From assembly GCF_056712565.1 (NCBI RefSeq), contig NZ_JBWXXM010000004.1: a stretch of DNA of 64,000 nt. One strand, given 5' to 3'. Position 1 is the stretch's first letter. The number at the start of each line of letters is the position of its first letter. The position numbers and the translations under genes are program-made. The notes beneath the pieces are model-generated. The model saw only the letters and a list, made by a program, of their open reading frames with translations. It searched no databases and had not been told where the DNA came from. This DNA is from a plasmid. Positions 36,001 through 43,601 of the stretch are shown here, in pieces.

Positions 36001-36185
36001 ATGCTAATAGGCTATGTACGCATATAGACAAATGAACAAAACACAGCTATGCAGTGAAAAGCACTTGAAAGCGCAGGATGTGAGCTAATTTTTGCGAATA
36101 AGGCGAGCAGCAAAAAAGCTGGGCACCCTGGGTTAAAAAAGGTTCTGCGTATGCTTTCCAGAGGTGATACCCTAGTCTCGGACTA
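36001..36185 (+). pseudogene. degenerate 5' fragment of a Cin/Gin/Hin-family serine invertase gene, inverted relative to the adjacent invertase
   Basis: Translation MLIGYVRI*TNEQNTAMQ*KALESAGCELIFANKASSKKAGHPGLKKVLRMLSRGDTLVSD* aligns to invertase residues 1-61 with two in-frame stops. Confidence 0.6.
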
Positions 36186-36212
36186 GGGACAACATTTCGA
36201 GAACAGTTTTCA

Positions 36213-36641
36213 TTAGCGGTCAGCAGGCGCTAGATACATCGAATTGATGTGCCGCGCGATAAATGTACCTATTCTATCAAGATAAATTACACCGACGCGG
36301 CAAGCACCCATGACATGAAAAAAGAAACGCCCCATGGGTGTTGATGTGTCAATACTGTCTGTCAGACTACGGAAATTAACACCTTTTTCCCGCAACTCCT
36401 CTATAAGCGTGATAAGGTGTTTCATACTTCTGCCAAGCCTATCCAGCTTCCAGACAACCAGCGTATCTCCTTCTGATAACGTTCTGAGCAGCTTTTTCAA
36501 GCCTGGTCTGGCTGACTTTGTTCCGCTTATTTTATCTTCAAAAATCAGTTCACATCCTGCGCAGTTCAGTGCATTTCTTTGTAAATCTGTGTTTTGGTCA
36601 TTTGTTGACACACGAATGTAGCCAATTTGCATGAAAAACAA
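36213..36641 (-). CDS. cin: Cin/Min-family serine DNA invertase, C-terminally truncated (homology ends after about residue 113 at about nt 36301)
   Basis: MQIGYIRVSTNDQNTDLQRNALNCAGCELIFEDKISGTKSARPGLKKLLRTLSEGDTLVVWKLDRLGRSMKHLITLIEELREKGVNFRSLTDSIDTSTPMGRFFFHVMGA matches the Gin/Hin/Cin catalytic domain; the next 29 residues are unrelated and the HTH domain is absent. Confidence 0.75.
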   Translation of the reverse strand: MFFMQIGYIRVSTNDQNTDLQRNALNCAGCELIFEDKISGTKSARPGLKKLLRTLSEGDTLVVWKLDRLGRSMKHLITLIEELREKGVNFRSLTDSIDTSTPMGRFFFHVMGACRVGVIYLDRIGTFIARHINSMYLAPADR

Positions 36642-36692
36642 CCTCTTTGTTTAGTTAAAAATACATCGTTGGTATAGGTAGGGATTAAGACT

Positions 36693-36717
36693 AAAACGTT
36701 GGTTTGGGGGAAGGCTC
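36693..36717 (+). other. invertase crossover site xs-1 (cix/mix-like), starts cassette tfc-1
   Basis: aaaacgTTggtttgggggaaggctc; core AACGTTGGTTT resembles the Hin/Gin/Cin family core AAACC-NN-GGTTT; 62 bp from the divergent invertase start. Confidence 0.55.
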
Positions 36718-37171
36718 GGCACTGCCCGTTGGTGTACCTGTTCCATGGCCCTCAGCCACACCACCAACGGGGTGGCTGAAATGCAATGGTGCAGCATTTT
36801 CTTCTGAAAAGTACCCAAATCTGGCAAAGGTTTACCCTACTAATAAATTGCCGGATCTACGGGGCGAATTTATTCGCGGCTGGGATGACGGGCGGGGGAT
36901 TGACTCTGGCCGTAATTTATTATCTGCACAGAATGATGCAATTCAGAATATTGTTGGTTCTTTCGGGCGTACTCAGCTTTTTAGAGATGTACTTAGTTCA
37001 GGGCCATTTAGTCAACATGGTCAAGTATTATCTACAGGCCTAAAGGAAACGGAAATTATTGAGGGTTATGGCTCTTATAACTGGACATTCGACGCCTCTC
37101 GCTCAGTTCGTACAGCATCTGAAACCCGCCCCCGTAATATTGCATTTAATTACATCGTAAGGGCGGCATAA
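36704..37171 (+). CDS. silent tail-fibre C-terminal cassette tfc-1 (TTG start, no promoter)
   Basis: Begins (M/L)GEGSALPVGVPVPWPSATPPTGWLKCNGAAFSSEKYPNLAKVYPTNKLPDLRGEFIRGWDDGRG, same as the junction of S, then a unique 80-aa core, ends ETRPRNIAFNYIVRAA. Confidence 0.65.
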   Translation: MGEGSALPVGVPVPWPSATPPTGWLKCNGAAFSSEKYPNLAKVYPTNKLPDLRGEFIRGWDDGRGIDSGRNLLSAQNDAIQNIVGSFGRTQLFRDVLSSGPFSQHGQVLSTGLKETEIIEGYGSYNWTFDASRSVRTASETRPRNIAFNYIVRAA

Positions 37172-37195
37172 AAACGTTGGTTTGGGGGAAGGCTC
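37171..37195 (+). other. crossover site xs-2
   Basis: aaaacgttggtttgggggaaggctc directly after the tfc-1 stop. Confidence 0.55.
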
Positions 37196-37658
37196 AGCAT
37201 TGCCCGTTGGCGTGCCCGTTCCGTGGCCCTTAGAAACACCGCCAACGGGGTGGCTGAAATGTAACGGAGCAGCATTTTCTTCTGAAATGTATCCCAAACT
37301 GGCAAAGGCCTACCCCACCAATAAATTACCGGATTTACGGGGAGAATTTATTCGCGGCTGGGATGATGGGCGCGGGGTGGATGCGGGACGTGCTTTATTG
37401 AGCATTCAGACAGGAATGCTGGAAAAGCACCGACATATTGTTGTAGCCAATGATGGTTACGACACAAAAGATGAATGGGAGCTGGCGACAATTTTCAAAA
37501 AAACATACACACAAGGACGGGGGCTTGATGCCTCAAATACAGGAGGGAATTTGATTCCATCACCGACACTTCATTCTCGAGGGAGTATTGGTAATACTGG
37601 CGGGAGTGAAACCCGTCCACGAAATATCGCATTTAATTACATCGTAAGGGCGGCATAA
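37182..37658 (+). CDS. silent tail-fibre C-terminal cassette tfc-2
   Basis: Same conserved head (PLETPP/SSEMYPKLAKAYPT allele) and tail ETRPRNIAFNYIVRAA, distinct core. Confidence 0.65.
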   Translation: MGEGSALPVGVPVPWPLETPPTGWLKCNGAAFSSEMYPKLAKAYPTNKLPDLRGEFIRGWDDGRGVDAGRALLSIQTGMLEKHRHIVVANDGYDTKDEWELATIFKKTYTQGRGLDASNTGGNLIPSPTLHSRGSIGNTGGSETRPRNIAFNYIVRAA

Positions 37659-37682
37659 AAACGTTGGTTTGGGGGAAGGCTC
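37658..37682 (+). other. crossover site xs-3
   Basis: aaaacgttggtttgggggaaggctc. Confidence 0.55.
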
Positions 37683-38133
37683 TGCACTGCCTGTTGGTGT
37701 GCCCGTTCCGTGGCCCTTAGAAACACCACCAACGGGCTGGCTAAAATGCAATGGTGCAGCATTTTCTTCTGAAATGTATCCCAAACTGGCAAAGGCCTAC
37801 CCCACCAATAAATTACCGGATTTACGCGGTGAGTTTATCCGTGGTTGGGATGATGGGCGAGGTGTGGATGCGGGAAGGGTCATCTTAAGCATACAGGGGT
37901 GGTTACAGGAAGTCATTATCATAATATTCGGTCATGGGACGCGTGGATAACACGGTATTGGTGCCATTAATTGACATGAGGGGGGGATAGTCTGTTGTCG
38001 ACAGATAACGCCGTCAGGCATTTTCAGCGATTAATGGTAAATTTCACCAGTCAACTCTGTAGGTGATGGTATAAATTTTGTTGCTGTCAGGCCGCGAAAT
38101 ATCGCATTTAATTACATCGTAAGGGCGGCATAA
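37669..38133 (+). pseudogene. degenerate duplicate of cassette tfc-4 (frameshifted cassette tfc-3)
   Basis: Near-identical to 38144-38602 at DNA level but with indels (ggttacagg vs ggttaacagg); ORF stops after 93 codons although the terminal RPRNIAFNYIVRAA coding block is present at 38090-38133. Confidence 0.55.
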
Positions 38134-38157
38134 AAACGTTGGTTTGGGGGAAGGCTC
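38133..38157 (+). other. crossover site xs-4
   Basis: aaaacgttggtttgggggaaggctc. Confidence 0.55.
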
Positions 38158-38602
38158 TGCACTGCCTGTTGGTGTGCCCGTTCCGTGGCCCTTAGAAACA
38201 CCACCAACGGGCTGGCTAAAATGCAATGGTGCAGCATTTTCTTCTGAAATGTATCCCAAACTGGCAAAGGCCTACCCCACCAATAAATTACCGGATTTAC
38301 GCGGTGAGTTTATCCGTGGTTGGGATGATGGGCGAGGTGTGGATGCGGGAAGGGTCATCTTAAGCATACAGGGGTGGTTAACAGGAAGTCATTATCATAA
38401 TATTCGGTCATGGGACGCGTGGGATAACACGGTATTGGTGCCAAATGACAGAGGGGGGGATAGTCTGTTGTCGACAGATAACGCCGTCCGGCAAGGAGCG
38501 ATTAATGGTAAATTTACCAGTCAATACAGAACGGAGTTATCTGGGGGGAATGAAACCCGCCCACGTAACATTGCCTTCAATTATATTGTGAGAGCAGCAT
38601 AA
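38144..38602 (+). CDS. silent tail-fibre C-terminal cassette tfc-4, coupled to a tail fibre assembly gene
   Basis: 152-aa cassette; stop overlaps the ATG of the following tfa gene (taATGg). Confidence 0.65.
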   Translation: MGEGSALPVGVPVPWPLETPPTGWLKCNGAAFSSEMYPKLAKAYPTNKLPDLRGEFIRGWDDGRGVDAGRVILSIQGWLTGSHYHNIRSWDAWDNTVLVPNDRGGDSLLSTDNAVRQGAINGKFTSQYRTELSGGNETRPRNIAFNYIVRAA

Positions 38603-39213
38603 TGGATAATGCGATATTAAATAGCGAACTTATAGCCATACAGGCAGGAAACATTATCGTTTATAACTATGATGGTGGTAATCGGGAATATATTTCTGCA
38701 TCAACTGAATATCTTGCTGTTGGCGTTGGTATTCCGGCAAATTCTTGTTTGGATGCTCCAGGCTCACATAAAGCAGGTTATGCGATTCTCCGTTCAGAGG
38801 ATTTAAGTTCATGGGAGTATGTGCCAGATCATCGTGGCGAAACTGTCTATAGCATTGACACTGGGAATCCCGAAGAAATCACGGTGTTGGGTGACTATCC
38901 GGAAAATACAACCACTATCGCCCCGCTAACACCATACGACAAATGGGATGGAGAGAAATGGGTGGTTGATACTGAGGCTCAACATAGTGCAGCTGTAGAG
39001 GCAGCAGAAACAAAACGTCAGTCATTGATTGATACTGCGATGGATTCCATTAGTCTGATTCAGTTGAAATTACGGGCTGGACGGAAGTTGACGCAGGCAG
39101 AAACCACGCAGCTTAACTCCGTGCTAGATTATATAGACGAGCTGAACGCGATGGATTTAACCACGGCACCAGATCTCAACTGGCCTGAAAAACAACTTTC
39201 TACAGCCAGTTGA
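38602..39213 (+). CDS. tail fibre assembly chaperone (Tfa / U-like)
   Basis: 203-aa product; Tfa-like C-terminal region DYIDELNAMD...WPE; translationally coupled to tfc-4, as U follows Sv in Mu/P1. Confidence 0.65.
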   Translation: MDNAILNSELIAIQAGNIIVYNYDGGNREYISASTEYLAVGVGIPANSCLDAPGSHKAGYAILRSEDLSSWEYVPDHRGETVYSIDTGNPEEITVLGDYPENTTTIAPLTPYDKWDGEKWVVDTEAQHSAAVEAAETKRQSLIDTAMDSISLIQLKLRAGRKLTQAETTQLNSVLDYIDELNAMDLTTAPDLNWPEKQLSTAS

Positions 39214-39218
39214 TATAA

Positions 39219-39716
39219 TTAATCCGCCCTCACAATATAATTAAATGCAATATTACGAGGGCGGGTTTCTAAGCCAGCAGTACCTAAATTAGCTACGGAC
39301 TGTTTATATGTTTTAAAAGTTCCATAATTAGGGGCTGGCAATCCTGCATCGCTTGTGTTCCCCCATCTGATAACTCCCGTATTACCACTAGTAGCCCATG
39401 CCTCGTCAAAGTAGAAATTAATTGAGCGGTCAGTTGCTACGGTTGATTTTGACGGTAATCCGTGAGCATGATCCTCCGTTGCATATCCTTGCTCGCTTAA
39501 AATAGAGCGACCAGAGTCAATCCCTCGCCCATCATCCCAGCCACGGATAAACTCACCGCGTAAATCAGGTAATTTTAACGTTGGGTAAACCTTTGCCAGA
39601 TTTGGGTACTTTTCAGAAGAAAATGCTGCACCATTGCATTTCAGCCACCCCGTTGGCGGTGTGGCTGAGGGCCATGGAATAGGTACACCAACGGGCAGCG
39701 CCGAGCCTTCCCCTAA
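39219..39716 (-). CDS. silent tail-fibre C-terminal cassette tfc-5 (no start codon: TTA at the crossover site)
   Basis: Open frame LGEGSALPVGVPIPWPSATPP...ETRPRNIAFNYIVRAD; missing from the ORF track because it begins TTA-GGG instead of TTG-GGG. Confidence 0.55.
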   Translation of the reverse strand, partial: LGEGSALPVGVPIPWPSATPPTGWLKCNGAAFSSEKYPNLAKVYPTLKLPDLRGEFIRGWDDGRGIDSGRSILSEQGYATEDHAHGLPSKSTVATDRSINFYFDEAWATSGNTGVIRWGNTSDAGLPAPNYGTFKTYKQSVANLGTAGLETRPRNIAFNYIVRAD

Positions 39717-39727
39717 ACCAACGTTTT
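39703..39727 (-). other. crossover site xs-5 (TTA variant, like the site in S)
   Basis: Plus strand gagccttcccctaaaccaacgtttt. Confidence 0.55.
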
Positions 39728-40155
39728 CATGCCGCCCTTACGATATAATTAAACGCAATGTTACGAGGACGAATGGTTACATAATTAACCCCATCACCTC
39801 GTGAAGGCCCTGCAAATGAAAAACGGGAAAATCCTGGTTGGTTAGAAACAATTTGGTCATAGTTATTGATTGAATGACCAGACCCAATGTCGAAATTACC
39901 TCCGTAATGAGAAAAACTTGTACCATCCTGCCCTGAAAGCAGGGTACGTCCCGCATCAATCCCGCGCCCATCATCCCAGCCACGGATAAATTCACCGCGT
40001 AAATCCGGTAATTTATTGGTGGGGTAGGCTTTTGCCAGTTTGGGATACATTTCAGAAGAAAATGCTGCACCATTGCATTTTAGCCAGCCCGTTGGTGGTG
40101 TTTCTAAGGGCCACGGAACGGGCACACCAACAGGCAATGCTGAGCCTTCCCCCAA
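39727..40155 (-). CDS. silent tail-fibre C-terminal cassette tfc-6
   Basis: 142-aa; conserved head and tail, unique core. Confidence 0.65.
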   Translation of the reverse strand: MGEGSALPVGVPVPWPLETPPTGWLKCNGAAFSSEMYPKLAKAYPTNKLPDLRGEFIRGWDDGRGIDAGRTLLSGQDGTSFSHYGGNFDIGSGHSINNYDQIVSNQPGFSRFSFAGPSRGDGVNYVTIRPRNIAFNYIVRAA

Positions 40156-40166
40156 ACCAACGTTTT
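40142..40166 (-). other. crossover site xs-6
   Basis: Plus strand gagccttcccccaaaccaacgtttt. Confidence 0.55.
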
Positions 40167-40669
40167 TATGCCGCCCTTACGATGTAATTAAATGCAACGT
40201 TGCGAGGGCGAGTTTCTGTACCTACATTTCCACTAATTTCACCATAACGTTTAACACTACGAGAGCTAATAGCTCGTAGTGAGGAAGGCACCTTATGACC
40301 GGGTTCGTCCGTTTTAACTATTCCCCCGTCACCGTATGTAGCTAGTATTCCTGGATTTACGCCTTCCCGTGCACTTCCTGCGGCGAGTCCGTCCCCTGTC
40401 CATAATTCCATATAGTGTGCATGGTCCAAAATTGTGTGTGGCTGCCAATTAAGCAAAGCGCGGCCAGCATCCACCCCGCGCCCATCATCCCAGCCACGGA
40501 TAAATTCACCGCGTAAATCAGGTAATTTTAACGTTGGGTAAACCTTTGCCAGATTTGGGTACTTTTCAGAAGAAAATGCTGCACCATTGCATTTCAGCCA
40601 CCCCGTTGGCGGTGTGGCTGAGGGCCATGGAATAGGTACACCAACGGGCAGCGCCGAGCCTTCCCCTAA
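40166..40669 (-). CDS. silent tail-fibre C-terminal cassette tfc-7 (no start codon; ORF track shows only its GTG-started distal 102 aa)
   Basis: Continuous frame LGEGSALPVGVPIPWPSATPP...GRGVDAGRALLNWQ...ETRPRNVAFNYIVRAA. Confidence 0.55.
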   Translation of the reverse strand, partial: LGEGSALPVGVPIPWPSATPPTGWLKCNGAAFSSEKYPNLAKVYPTLKLPDLRGEFIRGWDDGRGVDAGRALLNWQPHTILDHAHYMELWTGDGLAAGSAREGVNPGILATYGDGGIVKTDEPGHKVPSSLRAISSRSVKRYGEISGNVGTETRPRNVAFNYIVRAA

Positions 40670-40680
40670 ACCAACGTTTT
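40656..40680 (-). other. crossover site xs-7 (TTA variant)
   Basis: Plus strand gagccttcccctaaaccaacgtttt. Confidence 0.55.
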
Positions 40681-41141
40681 TATGCCGCCCTTACGATATA
40701 ATTAAAGGCAATATTACGAGGACGGTTTTCATTAGCTGTTGGCACGACACGAGAGGCGTCGAATCCAAGGTCATCGGTTTTGCCTATATCAGTTGTGTTA
40801 TTCGGCATTCTCGCAGATCGTGTTCCTGCATCATAAAAAGCCCCTCTGATTGCATCAAAAGACATGCCAATCCCGCCATCTGCGAACCCCTCAATATTTC
40901 TTATTGCATCCCCCTGTGAAGATAATAATTGTCGCCCGGCATCCACACCACGTCCGTCATCCCAGCCACGAATAAATTCACCGCGTAAATCCGGCAATTT
41001 ATTAGTAGGGTAAACCTTTGCCAGATTTGGGTACTTTTCAGAAGAAAATGCTGCTCCGTTACATTTCAGCCACCCCGTTGGCGGAGTGGCTGAGGGCCAC
41101 GGAACAGGTACGCCAACAGGCAATGCTGAGCCTTCCCCCAA
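40680..41141 (-). CDS. silent tail-fibre C-terminal cassette tfc-8
   Basis: 153-aa; conserved head and tail, unique core. Confidence 0.65.
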   Translation of the reverse strand: MGEGSALPVGVPVPWPSATPPTGWLKCNGAAFSSEKYPNLAKVYPTNKLPDLRGEFIRGWDDGRGVDAGRQLLSSQGDAIRNIEGFADGGIGMSFDAIRGAFYDAGTRSARMPNNTTDIGKTDDLGFDASRVVPTANENRPRNIAFNYIVRAA

Positions 41142-41152
41142 ACCAACGTTTT
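41128..41152 (-). other. crossover site xs-8
   Basis: Plus strand gagccttcccccaaaccaacgtttt. Confidence 0.55.
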
Positions 41153-41505
41153 TATGTGGCCCTTACAATGTAATTAAAAGCAACGTTGCGGGGGCGCATT
41201 GATATCCATGCCCCGGTAAAATTATCCTCTGCCGTCCTTTGAGTGCCTGTTATGGAGTTATCTGATGATGCTGGAACATAATCGCTATTATCTCCTGCTT
41301 TAGGATTAGCAGGGTTTCCAACAGTTATAACAGAATCAGCAGCGATACCTACTTTGACATTAGTAGTCAGATCGACACCGTAATAATCCTGCAAAGCTGT
41401 ACGAATAAATGTTGCAGTCTGACCACTTAGCAATGAACGCCCTGTATCAATCCCTCTCGAATCATCCCAACCACGGATAAACTCACCGCGTAAATCAGGT
41501 AATTT
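41152..41505 (-). CDS. distal part of the tail-fibre cassette now in expression position (tfc-9), in frame with S but separated from it by a TAA at 41506-41508
   Basis: Frame continues from the S stop: *KLPDLRGEFIRGWDDSRGIDTGRSLLSGQTATFIR...SMRPRNVAFNYIVRAT. Confidence 0.55.
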   Translation of the reverse strand, partial: KLPDLRGEFIRGWDDSRGIDTGRSLLSGQTATFIRTALQDYYGVDLTTNVKVGIAADSVITVGNPANPKAGDNSDYVPASSDNSITGTQRTAEDNFTGAWISMRPRNVAFNYIVRAT

Positions 41506-43155
41506 TTACGTGGGGTAAACCTTTGCCAGATTTGGGTACTTTTCAGAAGAAAATGCTGCTCCGTTACATTTCAGCCACCCCGTTGGTGGTGTGGCGGAGG
41601 GCCATGGAACAGGTACACCAACGGGCAGCGCCGAGCCTTCCCCTAAACCAAGGTAATCAAGAACGCTATGAATACTGGTCTTACCAAGAATGGCGCGTCC
41701 AACACTTGTCAATGCAGTTAACGCGGCACGATCAACACCTGTGAAATAAGGGAGTTTATCTGCTGCTGTAGCTAGTGCCGCTAGAGCAGTGAGCGTAGCG
41801 TCTGCCGCTTGCTTTCCATTAGCCAAATCATATGCAGCCTTGACAGCTTTCGGTGTGGCGGCCAGCACTTCAGACGTGCTGTTAGTGGCACTACTGAGCT
41901 GAGTGATGCCTTTCGCTGTCAATGAAGCTGTTGGCACACCAGTGATCTGATTCCAGGGATGTGTATGACTGGATGGTGCCTTTCCGGCTGCTAGATCGTA
42001 TGCAGCTTTAACCGCTTTTGGAGTTGCAGCTAATGTTTCAGAAGTGCTGTTGGTGTCGCTACTGAGCTGAACTATCCCTTTTTGTGTCGTGGTTGCATCC
42101 TGGGCTGTATACTTCCCGTTAGCCAAATCATATGCAGCCTTGACAGCTTTCGGTGTGGCGGCCAGCACTTCGGACGTACTGTTAGTGGCACTACTGAGCT
42201 GAGTGATGCCTTTCGCTGTCAATGAAGCTGTTGGCACACCAGTGATCTGATTCCAGGGATGTGTATGACTGGATGGTGCCTTTCCGGCTGCTAGATCGTA
42301 TGCAGCTTTAACCGCTTTTGGAGTTGCAGCTAATCTGTTGGTGTCGCTACTGAGCTGAACTATCCCTTTTTGTGTCGTGGTTGCATCCTGGGCTGTATAC
42401 TTCCCGTTAGCCAAATCATATGCAGCCTTGACAGCTTTCGGTGTGGCGGCCAGCACTTCGGACGTACTGTTAGTGGCACTACTGAGCTGAACTAATCCCT
42501 TTTGCGTTGTGCTTGCATCCTGCGCCGTATACTTGCTTTTCGCCAGATCGTAGGCTTTTTTAACTGCCAGCGAACTCGCAGCAACATCACTTCTGGTACT
42601 GGTTACAGAGTCTGAAATATCAATGCCGATCGTGCGGTTGATACGCTCGGATGTATCAATCATCTCTTGAGTAATGGTAGATACGCCAGCAGGGATATTC
42701 ACCGTACAAACCAGCAGTTCCCCATCACCTAACTGATATGAATCGGTATAGGTTCTGGCAACAAATTCAGCTGCATGAATATGTGACGCGGTATTAACCT
42801 GATAGGTATCTTCTCCAAGAAGGTATCTTCCCTTCAGCACAATTGCATATTTCTTGCCTGCGTTAAGTGCAAGAGAGATATCCTTACGATGCTGAATAGT
42901 TACCTGGTAGAATTCACCAATATCCACTGACGCCGCGCCAGCGGTTTTATCTCCATCCACTGAGGTGATTAACAGGTTCATCCCACCGCCAGGCTTAGGC
43001 AAGAAACCAGCATAAAATCCCGGGTCAACAATTCCCCTGAATTTTCGGTTTAGAGCGGCTGACAGATATGGTTCGTGGTATTGCACATCAGCCACCAGAG
43101 CCAACGACTCGGGTGATGGGTAAGTAACCGATGTAACAACTGTAACGTCATTCAT
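41506..43155 (-). CDS. tail fibre protein S (constant N-terminal part plus start of the expressed cassette), ends at an in-frame ochre codon inside the conserved cassette head
   Basis: Start MNDVTVV behind AAGGA; internal repeats of the phage tail-fibre repeat motif (SSATNSTSEVLAATPKAVKAAYDLA); ends ...LGEGSALPVGVPVPWPSATPPTGWLKCNGAAFSSEKYPNLAKVYPT*. Confidence 0.7.
   Translation of the reverse strand: MNDVTVVTSVTYPSPESLALVADVQYHEPYLSAALNRKFRGIVDPGFYAGFLPKPGGGMNLLITSVDGDKTAGAASVDIGEFYQVTIQHRKDISLALNAGKKYAIVLKGRYLLGEDTYQVNTASHIHAAEFVARTYTDSYQLGDGELLVCTVNIPAGVSTITQEMIDTSERINRTIGIDISDSVTSTRSDVAASSLAVKKAYDLAKSKYTAQDASTTQKGLVQLSSATNSTSEVLAATPKAVKAAYDLANGKYTAQDATTTQKGIVQLSSDTNRLAATPKAVKAAYDLAAGKAPSSHTHPWNQITGVPTASLTAKGITQLSSATNSTSEVLAATPKAVKAAYDLANGKYTAQDATTTQKGIVQLSSDTNSTSETLAATPKAVKAAYDLAAGKAPSSHTHPWNQITGVPTASLTAKGITQLSSATNSTSEVLAATPKAVKAAYDLANGKQAADATLTALAALATAADKLPYFTGVDRAALTALTSVGRAILGKTSIHSVLDYLGLGEGSALPVGVPVPWPSATPPTGWLKCNGAAFSSEKYPNLAKVYPT
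41633..41658 (-). other. crossover site xs-9 inside S (constant/variable junction)
   Basis: Plus strand gagccttcccctaaaccaaggtaatc; core ACCTTGGTTTAGG, reverse-complement-symmetric around TT like Hin/Gin/Cin-family sites. Confidence 0.55.
41815..42530. repeat. about 300-bp tandem direct repeats (2.4 copies) inside S
   Basis: 41821-42120 and 42121-42405 nearly identical (second copy lacks 15 bp near 42336), third partial copy to about 42530. Confidence 0.7.
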
Positions 43156-43166
43156 CAAGCATATCC

Positions 43167-43601
43167 TTATGCTGTAGTCGAGTTTATGGCCATAACTGCG
43201 GTATATGTTTTGCCCACATACAGCGAGTCTTCCTGGACACAAATAATGGCGATTGGCTTATTCTCGTTATCCAGAACAACCAGAGTGTTGAATGGGTAGT
43301 TTTTCCCTTCCTGCAACTGACTTTGATCAAGGTCCATTCGGACAGTAATTATCCCGCCTGAGTAGGTTGGGACGAGGTTGATGGTGCAAAATTGACTGGT
43401 CAGTTCTGCCAGATCGAAAGCCTTTGGCAGTTCTCCAATCTCATAAGTGCCATCTCCTTTCTTAGTAACCAGTGAACTGGTACCGAAAACGGCCTTGCTG
43501 ATTAAAAATCGAGAGCCTTTGTTAATGGACGATTCAGCGCGCCGCTGATAGTAATAGTCCAACAACTGACTCTTATAGAGGTTTGTTGAGACGTCAGACA
43601 T
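43167..43601 (-). CDS. tail fibre-associated protein (R-position), 144 aa
   Basis: Immediately upstream of S on the same strand; synteny. Confidence 0.45.
   Translation of the reverse strand: MSDVSTNLYKSQLLDYYYQRRAESSINKGSRFLISKAVFGTSSLVTKKGDGTYEIGELPKAFDLAELTSQFCTINLVPTYSGGIITVRMDLDQSQLQEGKNYPFNTLVVLDNENKPIAIICVQEDSLYVGKTYTAVMAINSTTA

Follow-up and report, generated by a model that had tools for sequence, protein, structure and literature searches.

A plasmid-borne tail-fiber locus with many alternative gene ends raises the question of what a single base at the head of each end can tell about its function and history. In the 64,000-nucleotide stretch of plasmid DNA analyzed here (the window; contig NZ_JBWXXM010000004.1 of assembly GCF_056712565.1), cassettes are headed by crossover sites that read either GGT-TTG-GGG or GGT-TTA-GGG. 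A preliminary description took this difference to separate start-capable from start-less cassettes and suggested that the TTA form may be either a record of having been joined to gene S or a functional subclass of sites. The reading that we prefer, with a probability of roughly 0.78, is a Min-type (p15B-like) inversion array in a P1-like phage-plasmid, in which TTG/TTA is a silent SNP that normally moves with its cassette.

Crossover sites and the variable base

A pattern search returned exactly nine matches to AACGTTGGTTTRGGGGAAGGCTC in the window, compared with an expectation of 0 from shuffles. The + strand carries four of them (36695, 37173, 37660, and 38135; all four TTG) and the - strand five (39703-39725, TTA; 40142-40164, TTG; 40656-40678, TTA; 41128-41150, TTG; and 41633-41655, TTA), the last of which carries the left flank contributed by Sc, the constant part of gene S. 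The preliminary count of six TTG and three TTA sites is thereby confirmed, as is the position of the TTA sites at the S junction and at the heads of cassettes 39219-39716 and 40166-40669, whose TTA codons begin at positions 39716 and 40669. Such a site family far exceeds what chance would give; the 6:3 ratio itself is just the allele frequency of one SNP.

Site anatomy can be read directly from the sequences, which have the form N12-TT-GGTTTRGGGGAA. Two imperfectly symmetric 12-bp halves flank a 2-bp asymmetric core, as in the 26-bp crossover sites of the Din family, and the TT core is common to all nine, in constant orientation relative to the cassette. Sites occur in inverted orientation (four on the + strand and five on the - strand), and inverted and permuted products are found in relatives. 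The sites are as follows.

36687..36712, + strand: crossover site 1, nearest the invertase, AAGACTAAAACG-TT-GGTTTGGGGGAA; variable base G at 36706
37165..37190, + strand: crossover site 2, GGCATAAAAACG-TT-GGTTTGGGGGAA; variable base G at 37184
37652..37677, + strand: crossover site 3; variable base G at 37671
38127..38152, + strand: crossover site 4; variable base G at 38146
39708..39733, - strand: crossover site 5, GGCATGAAAACG-TT-GGTTTAGGGGAA; variable base A (sense strand) at 39714
40147..40172, - strand: crossover site 6; variable base G at 40153
40661..40686, - strand: crossover site 7; variable base A at 40667
41133..41158, - strand: crossover site 8, CACATAAAAACG-TT-GGTTTGGGGGAA; variable base G at 41139
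41638..41663, - strand: crossover site 9, the Sc junction, TTCTTGATTACC-TT-GGTTTAGGGGAA; variable base A at 41644; homologous to P1 cixR

Counted within the half-site on the cassette side, the base that varies occupies position 7, which puts it 6 nt 3' of the TT core. Annotation of P1 places the cix crossover between the two T residues of the homologous ACC-T|T-GGTTTA, which is 5' of position 7, and the variable base therefore travels with the cassette. Its effect on the protein is equally direct: TTR is a Leu codon two residues into every cassette, and either codon, TTA or TTG, supplies the Leu of the fused Gly-Leu-Gly-Glu. For the fused S protein the change is accordingly synonymous. For the related invertase Gin, A/T is required at positions 4 to 6 and no base preference is seen at positions 7 to 10 (PMC3616721), the position-7 data coming from a zinc-finger fusion without the native helix-turn-helix (HTH), so that an effect on Min binding is possible. 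The Sc left half-site (GATTACC) deviates from the internal left halves (AAAACC).

Cassettes, reading frames, and invertase genes

Besides nine 3' cassettes, the array includes a single tfa gene, a psi-min fragment, and an invertase gene that is truncated; its host gene is a P1-like tail-fiber Sc. The nine cassettes represent eight types plus one decayed duplicate; L117 in the list below is one of the relatives.

36701..37171, + strand: cassette A1, silent 3' S segment, TTG type; Phage Tail Collar domain (Pfam)
37179..37658, + strand: cassette A2, TTG type; 0 mismatches to its L117 counterpart
37666..38133, + strand: cassette A3, decayed duplicate of A4 (repeat families); ORF 37669..37950
38141..38602, + strand: cassette A4, TTG type; stop codon overlaps the tfa start
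38602..39213, + strand: tfa, tail-fiber assembly gene, Caudo_TAP (Pfam PF02413); the sole tfa in the array
39219..39719, - strand: cassette B1, TTA type (previously 39219-39716); 0 mismatches to its L117 counterpart
39727..40158, - strand: cassette B2, TTG type (ORF list, site alignment)
40166..40672, - strand: cassette B3, TTA type (previously 40166-40669; ORF list, site alignment)
40680..41144, - strand: cassette B4, TTG type (ORF list, site alignment)
41152..41649, - strand: cassette B5, TTA type, now fused to Sc (ORF list, cassette comparison)
41652..43155, - strand: Sc, constant 5' part of tail-fiber gene S; internal repeats of ~300 nt (Phage_fiber_2 repeats)

At its 5' end, Sc is 96% identical to S of P1 and P7. 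All cassette frames continue the Sc frame through Leu-Gly-Leu-Gly-Glu, and the conserved 5' cassette segment encodes a Phage Tail Collar domain (Pfam) that extends the S reading frame. The A3 and A4 repeats are 100% identical over their initial 289 nt, with indels thereafter, and the A3 frame closes at 37950; in almost all relatives possessing both A4 and B1, tfa lies between the two. The 5'-most 137 nt of B5 are a c10-type 5' haplotype and the remainder is B5 sequence, with a premature TAA at 41506-41508, at the patchy haplotype junction, in the Sc-fused copy. Among complete E. coli genomes, none matches the Sc-B5 junction of the window, the best match reaching 96.6%.

The reading frames behave as had been described, with a different meaning. 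The two start-less frames indeed span 165 and 167 codons (498 and 504 nt when the stop is counted), the six TTG cassettes are listed as TTG-started, M-initial ORFs, and cassette 39219-39716 is missing from the ORF list; cassette 40166-40669 appears there solely as a shorter GTG-started ORF, 40166..40474. An in-frame TAA 7 codons upstream closes every cassette frame. The cassettes hold no excess of promoters (9 promoter-like sites versus 12.4 expected, none upstream of a TTG), and no correctly spaced Shine-Dalgarno (SD) sequence was found, the sole or best anti-SD match lying ~17 to 19 nt upstream and being identical in TTA and TTG cassettes. Nor is the TTG start conserved within a cassette type, as both alleles occur in every common type across relatives. 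With neither a promoter excess nor a properly spaced ribosome-binding site, "start-capable" reflects only the acceptance of TTG as a start codon. Two sequence classes exist, and the two kinds of gene do not: the change is synonymous, the silent cassettes are not independent genes, and TTG simply satisfies the ORF finder.

TTG is a weak start codon, and it could be speculated that a ribosome that finishes the upstream cassette at its TAA, 10 nt ahead of the TTG, reinitiates there and yields free collar or receptor-binding fragments, which a TTA cassette could not do. The spacing of that stop would suit such a role, G is the commoner allele at non-Sc slots, annotation pipelines list these cassettes as CDSs in relatives, and a chimeric tail-fiber protein arising from Pin-type inversion has been reported to block T2 adsorption (PMC12529663). 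The missing SD and promoter signals, the variation of the allele within a cassette type, and the presence of TTA at the same place in P1 and other Din systems all speak against it, as does the consideration that the product would be without the N-terminal attachment part of the fiber, and we hold reinitiation to be extremely improbable.

Next to site 1 lie the invertase-related sequences.

36001..36177, + strand: psi-min-like fragment, the 5' part (~59 codons) of a second serine-invertase gene (tblastn)
36213..36641, - strand: truncated Min-type invertase gene, ATG at 36632 (blastn against L117, Pfam)
36543..36614, - strand: putative enhancer, homologous to the P1 cin enhancer (cin nt 19-90; P1 annotation, alignment)

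The psi-min-like fragment matches residues 1 to 59 of the intact L117 invertase at 63% identity (tblastn). Against L117, the truncated min gene gives two 100% identical blocks with 248 bp skipped (blastn), and its homology to intact min stops at about 36302-36303, the site of the missing 248 bp; no record among E. coli complete genomes has the same deletion. In PLSDB, matches to this invertase gene occur in ~190 plasmids. Its product keeps catalytic-domain residues 1 to 110, and the Resolvase N-terminal domain (PF00239, E = 3.6e-40, window 36216-36641) is the sole Pfam domain there. The HTH typical of Din-family invertases is absent from the window copy because of the 248-bp deletion, whereas the intact invertase of relatives has 190 aa and HTH_7 (PF02796). 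Judged from this gene sequence, inversion in this window could occur only with invertase supplied in trans. The putative enhancer stretch, a candidate counterpart of the Fis-dependent element of Din-family systems, is identical to that in intact L117 min, with 86% mean column identity in a three-way alignment that includes P1.

Alleles and mosaic 5' segments across relatives

We compared 20 complete plasmids and 24 IMG/VR viral contigs. Among the 20 plasmids, the same cassette types stand in differing orders and orientations, and different cassettes are fused to Sc in different relatives. Allele retention can be observed directly in these permuted arrays: silent and Sc-joined copies are seen with identical 240-nt 5' ends and one and the same allele (B1-A, c10-A, B3-A, and B4-G), and this holds among near-identical relatives. 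Both alleles are likewise observed at Sc, which is joined to TTG in 4/20 complete plasmids and 16/24 IMG/VR contigs and to TTA in the remainder. As the allele is kept whether silent or joined and Sc is found with both, the base is no mark left behind by S, and recombination involves both classes. The suggested record of past joining to S conflicts both with these relatives and with the P1 crossover point.

Linkage between base and cassette is nevertheless incomplete. The following cassette predicts the allele better (73%) than the preceding flank (60%), and a strict cassette linkage, which we had considered, was dropped when the enlarged sample proved ~73% predictable from cassette type; counts in relatives are 6A/8G for A1, 7A/6G for B3, 4A/14G for A4, and 14A/4G for B1. 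The window TTA cassettes have linked SNPs in common, and B1, B3, B5, and c10 share their first ~80 nt, yet at ~19% of sites across relatives the variable base is discordant with SNPs only 12 to 21 nt away. Non-modal 5' haplotypes are common in all slots, and such chimeric ends are not specific to Sc (35% at internal slots vs 50% at Sc, p = 0.28). In many cassettes the replacement tracts begin at the site and end at variable points. A second Din-type site in the conserved segment, which might account for the chimeric junctions near nt 135-150, was looked for by eye; only a half-site-like GGTTTACCC was seen at ~nt 128, and as the window chimera switches to the right of GGTTTACCC, this explanation was rejected.

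One observation is not what a neutral, freely shuffled SNP predicts. The Sc junction carries the TTA-type 5' haplotype significantly more often than other slots do (16A/4G vs 52A/75G, or 41% A, elsewhere, p = 0.0014; 15/19 vs 8.7 expected in a per-plasmid test, p = 0.0016), in a set of 20 plasmids that are not phylogenetically independent and whose consensus, when drawn from mixed-isomer cultures, may be chimeric. The contrast between Sc and internal slots peaks over nt 5-77 and dies away by about nt 83-150. In A4, G is present in 14/15 silent copies and A in 3/3 Sc-joined copies, and these three have a replaced 5' segment. The chimeras joined to Sc (A4 in three cases, A2, and the Sc-B5 of the window) have an A-type 5' stretch of ~135 to 150 nt followed by their own sequence, and L127, another relative, resembles a reciprocal swap, with Sc-A4 carrying a B1-like 5' end and B1 an A4-like 5' end.

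These findings can be placed into a single scheme. Within the tail-fiber operon of a P1-like phage-plasmid, Sc ends in its Din-type site, and nine promoterless 3' cassettes are each headed by the right half-site, which also codes for Gly-Leu-Gly-Glu. A serine invertase would cut at the central TT and exchange everything 3' of it, leaving one cassette fused in frame to Sc. The A/G at position 7 falls just outside the A/T triplet (positions 4 to 6) needed by the invertase arm, and the base probably has little or no effect on recombination. It is part of the conserved ~220-nt 5' segment encoding the collar domain, a fine-scale mosaic whose parts homologous exchange or gene conversion may shuffle between cassettes; homologous exchange is the likely source of the 5' mosaicism. 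The base is uninformative on translation starts and normally moves together with its own cassette.

The enrichment at Sc could instead mean that position 7 alters how an invertase dimer uses a site, especially with the weak left half of Sc, so that some Sc-cassette junctions switch away more slowly and hence accumulate. The deviating Sc half-site would fit such a subclass, as would the fact that TTA is the allele of P1 cix and TTG is peculiar to these Min-type cassettes. We nonetheless consider a functional subclass very unlikely, both in its action on the dimer and in the slower switching: the base lies outside the A/T-requiring positions in a context where Gin has no preference, each allele occurs both silent and Sc-joined, the enrichment spans the whole haplotype of the first ~80 nt and not the variable base specifically, and simple multiplicative site strengths would be expected to give no occupancy bias.

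A partly historical account is conceivable as well, in which some homologous crossover or break repair takes place inside the ~220-nt segment and not at the TT core, and the Sc-proximal stretch with its TTA either remains at Sc or gets copied to other cassettes. The A-type ends of the Sc-joined chimeras, the apparent swap in L127, the fading of the allele contrast with distance, and the tracts that start at the site agree with this account; the similar frequency of non-modal haplotypes at internal slots, the failure of the preceding flank to predict the allele there, and the intact movement of whole cassettes among near-identical plasmids do not. The decay with distance may only reflect the ~80 nt that four cassette types have in common, and, at about one short-read length from unique Sc, the switch points fall where polishing artefacts from mixed isomers would look alike. 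Both parts of this account, the exchange inside the segment and the retention or copying of the TTA stretch, are in our view unlikely. That the position-7 polymorphism with its linked ~80 nt is non-neutral at the DNA level and biases which junction occupies Sc, either through tuned Min activity on the weak Sc site or through exchange downstream of the canonical core, is a decidedly doubtful proposition.

Significance and comparison with known inversion systems

As originally proposed, the two site classes carry little biological weight, TTG/TTA being a silent SNP in a long-known system. There is a lesson for annotation: silent 3' cassettes are entered by PGAP and by ORF callers as "phage tail protein" genes in their own right, and a synonymous base decides whether a cassette gets a full-length listing. 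If the TTA-haplotype enrichment at the expressed junction is true, multi-cassette inversion systems would be biased shufflers; a non-neutral position-7 haplotype would further imply fast- and slow-switching (or S-retained) cassette classes and a built-in hierarchy of tail-fiber expression.

The system is already known, as Min/Cin-type tail-fiber switching. The Min array of p15B was described from E. coli 15T- by Sandmeier, Iida, Arber, and co-workers in 1990-1992 and reportedly has six mix sites and an intact min; a psi-min fragment is also said to appear in the p15B studies. As in that array, a P1-related backbone carries a serine invertase beside the cassettes, a truncated second invertase fragment adjoins min, and more than two sites define several overlapping invertible segments that join one constant 5' tail-fiber part, in frame, to alternative 3' parts. 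The window differs in its nine sites, its invertase without a DNA-binding domain, and its fused cassette with a premature stop. A segment of pMCR_SCKP-LL83 matches p15B min with 92% coverage and 99% identity (PMC5786510), and the window cassettes differ by 0 to 4 bases from most of their pMCR_SCKP-LL83 counterparts; the apparent tie of the window to p15B min is thus an indirect one, running through that plasmid.

Similarly, the C-segment of P1 (Cin/cix), together with Mu Gin/gix and e14 Pin/pix, has a homologous site architecture and core (...ACC-TT-GGTTTA...), and P1 shares the placement of the crossover within S, the 96% identical 5' end of Sc, and a stretch in the 5' part of the invertase gene that is annotated as an enhancer in P1 and is a putative one in the window. 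In P1, however, there are two sites and the choice is between two alternatives, with a separate assembly gene (U/U') for each, and both P1 cix sites have A at position 7, whereas the window is A/G polymorphic across nine sites and has one tfa. The R64 shufflon (Rci/sfx) is alike in logic, since multiple inversions join alternative 3' cassettes to a constant 5' part and so make up a single expressed gene. It does so with a tyrosine recombinase acting on 19-bp sfx sites in a pilus gene, and membership in that class was rejected for the window, where the invertase is a serine recombinase (Pfam Resolvase) and the sites are 26-bp sites of Din type.

Crossover sites and the variable leucine codon

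The locus is identified here as a Min-type multiple-inversion tail-fibre system of a P1-like phage-plasmid. This assignment follows from gene S, whose 5' end within the ORF at 41506-43242 is 96% identical to gene S of P1 and P7, from the Phage Tail Collar domain at the start of each cassette, from the Caudo_TAP and serine recombinase assignments, and from piecewise matches of the region to hundreds of ~95-kb plasmids from E. coli, Salmonella and Klebsiella. In one of these plasmids, pMCR_SCKP-LL83, the cassettes differ by 0-4 bases from most of those in the window. A pattern search with AACGTTGGTTTRGGGGAAGGCTC returned nine crossover sites in the window, whereas shuffled sequence gave no match.

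Features of the inversion array
36001-36177, + strand: second invertase fragment, truncated, 5' part, 59 codons, 63% identical to the invertase gene min and adjoining it
36213-36641: invertase ORF, serine recombinase N-terminal domain
36695, 37173, 37660, 38135, + strand: crossover sites, all TTG
37666-38133: cassette A3, decayed tandem duplicate of A4; first 289 nt of the repeat 100% identical, then indels; frame closes at 37950
38602-39213: tail-fibre assembly protein gene (tfa), Caudo_TAP
39725 (TTA), 40164 (TTG), 40678 (TTA), 41150 (TTG), 41655 (TTA), - strand: crossover sites
41506-43242: gene S, 578-codon ORF, true ATG 43155, Phage_fiber_2 repeats

Read in cassette sense, all nine sites have the form N12-TT-GGTTTRGGGGAA. 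The left 12 nt at internal sites are the end of the preceding cassette, GGCATAAAAACG, including its TAA stop; at the S junction, where the constant 5' part of the gene (Sc) meets the expressed cassette, they are the end of the constant part, TTCTTGATTACC. The left flank of the TTA site at 41655 is unlike that of the other sites. In the GenBank annotation of P1, the cix crossover separates the two T of ...CCAATACC-T/T-GGTTTAAGAGAA... (S sense), to which the Sc site of the window aligns as ...TGATTACC-T/T-GGTTTAGGGGAA...; on this alignment, the variable A/G lies 6 nt 3' of the exchange point, at position 7 of the half-site on the right (cassette) side. Both P1 cix sites have A at this position, and after a canonical serine-recombinase exchange the base would stay with the cassette. 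When the specificity of the related Gin catalytic domain was profiled, positions 4-6 had to be A/T and no preference was seen at positions 7-10, although, as the domain was assayed as a zinc-finger fusion, this is silent on the native HTH (PMC3616721).

The preliminary description was accurate as to the sites (six TTG and three TTA) and the ORF track: the six TTG cassettes are listed as TTG-started ORFs, the cassette at 39219-39716 is missing, and that at 40166-40669 is listed only from an internal GTG. The division into start-capable and start-less cassettes that was drawn from this is an artefact of ORF calling. Going upstream from the TTR, the cassette frame meets a TAA after seven codons, so the ORF finder requires a start codon at the TTR itself, and it accepts TTG but not TTA. 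Promoter-like sites are not enriched across 36100-43400 (9 found, 12.4 expected), and none within that interval lies upstream of any cassette. The only anti-Shine-Dalgarno complementarity is AGGGCGG, contributed by the conserved ...RAA* codons; it sits about 17-19 nt upstream and does not differ between the two classes. Nor do cassette types keep a constant start codon from one relative to another. Translation might alternatively reinitiate at the TTG, 10 nt after the TAA of the upstream cassette, but nothing supports this. The fused frame across the junction, CTT GGT TTR GGG GAA, encodes Leu-Gly-Leu-Gly-Glu with either base, so that the two "classes", TTA and TTG, amount to one synonymous SNP.

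Cassette alleles among related plasmids

We collected 116 IMG/VR stretches with the site. Inversion regions were also taken from 19 complete plasmids, of which nine were picked by similarity to the window and ten by even-step sampling of plasmids with this invertase gene. The same cassette types (A1, A2, A4, B1-B5 and a further type, c10) recur among the plasmids in varying order and orientation, as would be expected for isomers of a single shuffling system. Resistance modules lie inside or beside the array in two relatives, ISApl1-mcr-1.1 in CP047090.1 (6350-9549) and ISEcp1-blaCTX-M-15 in CP083412.1 (4226-6998), and the array seems to tolerate their insertion.

Among near-identical plasmids, the allele travels with the intact cassette. 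In the window, L117, L120, L123 and L125, B1-TTA is silent; L118 and L124 have it joined to Sc, and its first 240 nt are identical in the two states. c10-TTA and B3-TTA likewise keep their allele silent or fused, and the Sc-fused B4-TTG of L130 is identical to silent B4 copies. TTG is the allele at Sc in 4 of the 20 plasmids and in 16 of the 24 viral contigs. As Sc carries either base and cassettes keep theirs in both states, both allele classes take part in recombination, and S is not what deposits the base; the proposal that TTA records past joining to S is unsupported as stated.

The three TTA cassettes of the window do share linked SNPs (GCG; TLKLP instead of TNKLP) and are mutually closer, with 7-19 differences over 210 nt against 20 or more to the rest. 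Across relatives this linkage is lost: both alleles occur in every common cassette type, and position 7 is discordant with SNPs only 12-21 nt away at about one-fifth of sites. Tracts of replaced 5' sequence begin at the site and have variable ends. The following cassette predicts the allele in 73% of cases, the preceding flank in 60%. This pattern is that of a multi-copy repeat of ~220 nt, probably under homologous exchange or conversion.

TTA at the expressed junction

A modest enrichment of the TTA haplotype is seen at the expressed junction. Among the 20 plasmids (L117-L136), the Sc slot has 16 A and 4 G against 52 A and 75 G (41% A) at all other slots (p = 0.0014). Against per-plasmid expectations, A is at Sc in 15 of 19 complete plasmids (8.7 expected, p = 0.0016) and in 8 of 10 of the even-step sample (4.7 expected, p = 0.027). 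The proposed association with S thus gains partial support at the level of pattern, but none for the mechanism suggested.

The contrast spans, and is confined to, the first ~80 nt 3' of the core; by about nt 83-150 it has faded. Among the 12 typed cases with A at Sc, eight involve cassette types in which A is the usual allele. In the remaining four, the cassette is of a G type (A4 three times, A2 once) and an A-type stretch has replaced its first ~135-150 nt. Non-modal 5' ends show no significant excess at Sc over elsewhere (p = 0.28). The four candidate causes are selection on the fibre expressed, homologous crossovers that fall 3' of the core and so keep the Sc-proximal stretch where it is, non-multiplicative site strength with Sc plus TTA as a slow-exit state, and consensus artefacts in mixed-isomer assemblies, with which switch points about one short-read length from unique Sc sequence are consistent.

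State of the array and known inversion systems

Compared with every matched relative, the invertase gene lacks exactly 248 bp (junction near 36302), a deletion shared by no complete E. coli genome in the collection searched; the first 110 residues and the enhancer-homologous stretch are kept and the C-terminal HTH domain is removed. The Sc-fused cassette (41506-41649) is a chimera: nt 1-137 equal the c10-type 5' haplotype, the one joined to Sc in L117 and L123, followed by B5, and the window lacks the c10 variable part. A patchy c10/B5/c10/B5 pattern at nt 137-143 changes TTA to TAA at 41506-41508, truncating S within the collar domain. The chimera is either a real product of homologous recombination or a consensus artefact. 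The expressed fibre gene looks defective in its present configuration, though the deletion and premature TAA may alternatively be assembly errors. In L120, L122, L128, L132 and L134, S is annotated as frameshifted or its full-length CDS is unlisted, and some have indels in the 5' conserved part of the Sc-joined cassette; decay of the phage-plasmids or errors in long-read assembly could account for this.

The present arrangement is Sc-B5-B4-B3-B2-B1, then convergent tfa. The single tfa of the array lies 3' of A4 and faces B1, and is therefore not co-oriented with S in the window; A4 and B1 flank it in nearly every plasmid that has both.

The array looks frozen unless an invertase acts in trans, and cross-action among Pin-type invertases is documented, for example of PinQ on e14 (PMC12529663). 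The Min-type system itself is already known. The truncated fragment at 36001-36177 resembles the psi-min of the p15B literature.
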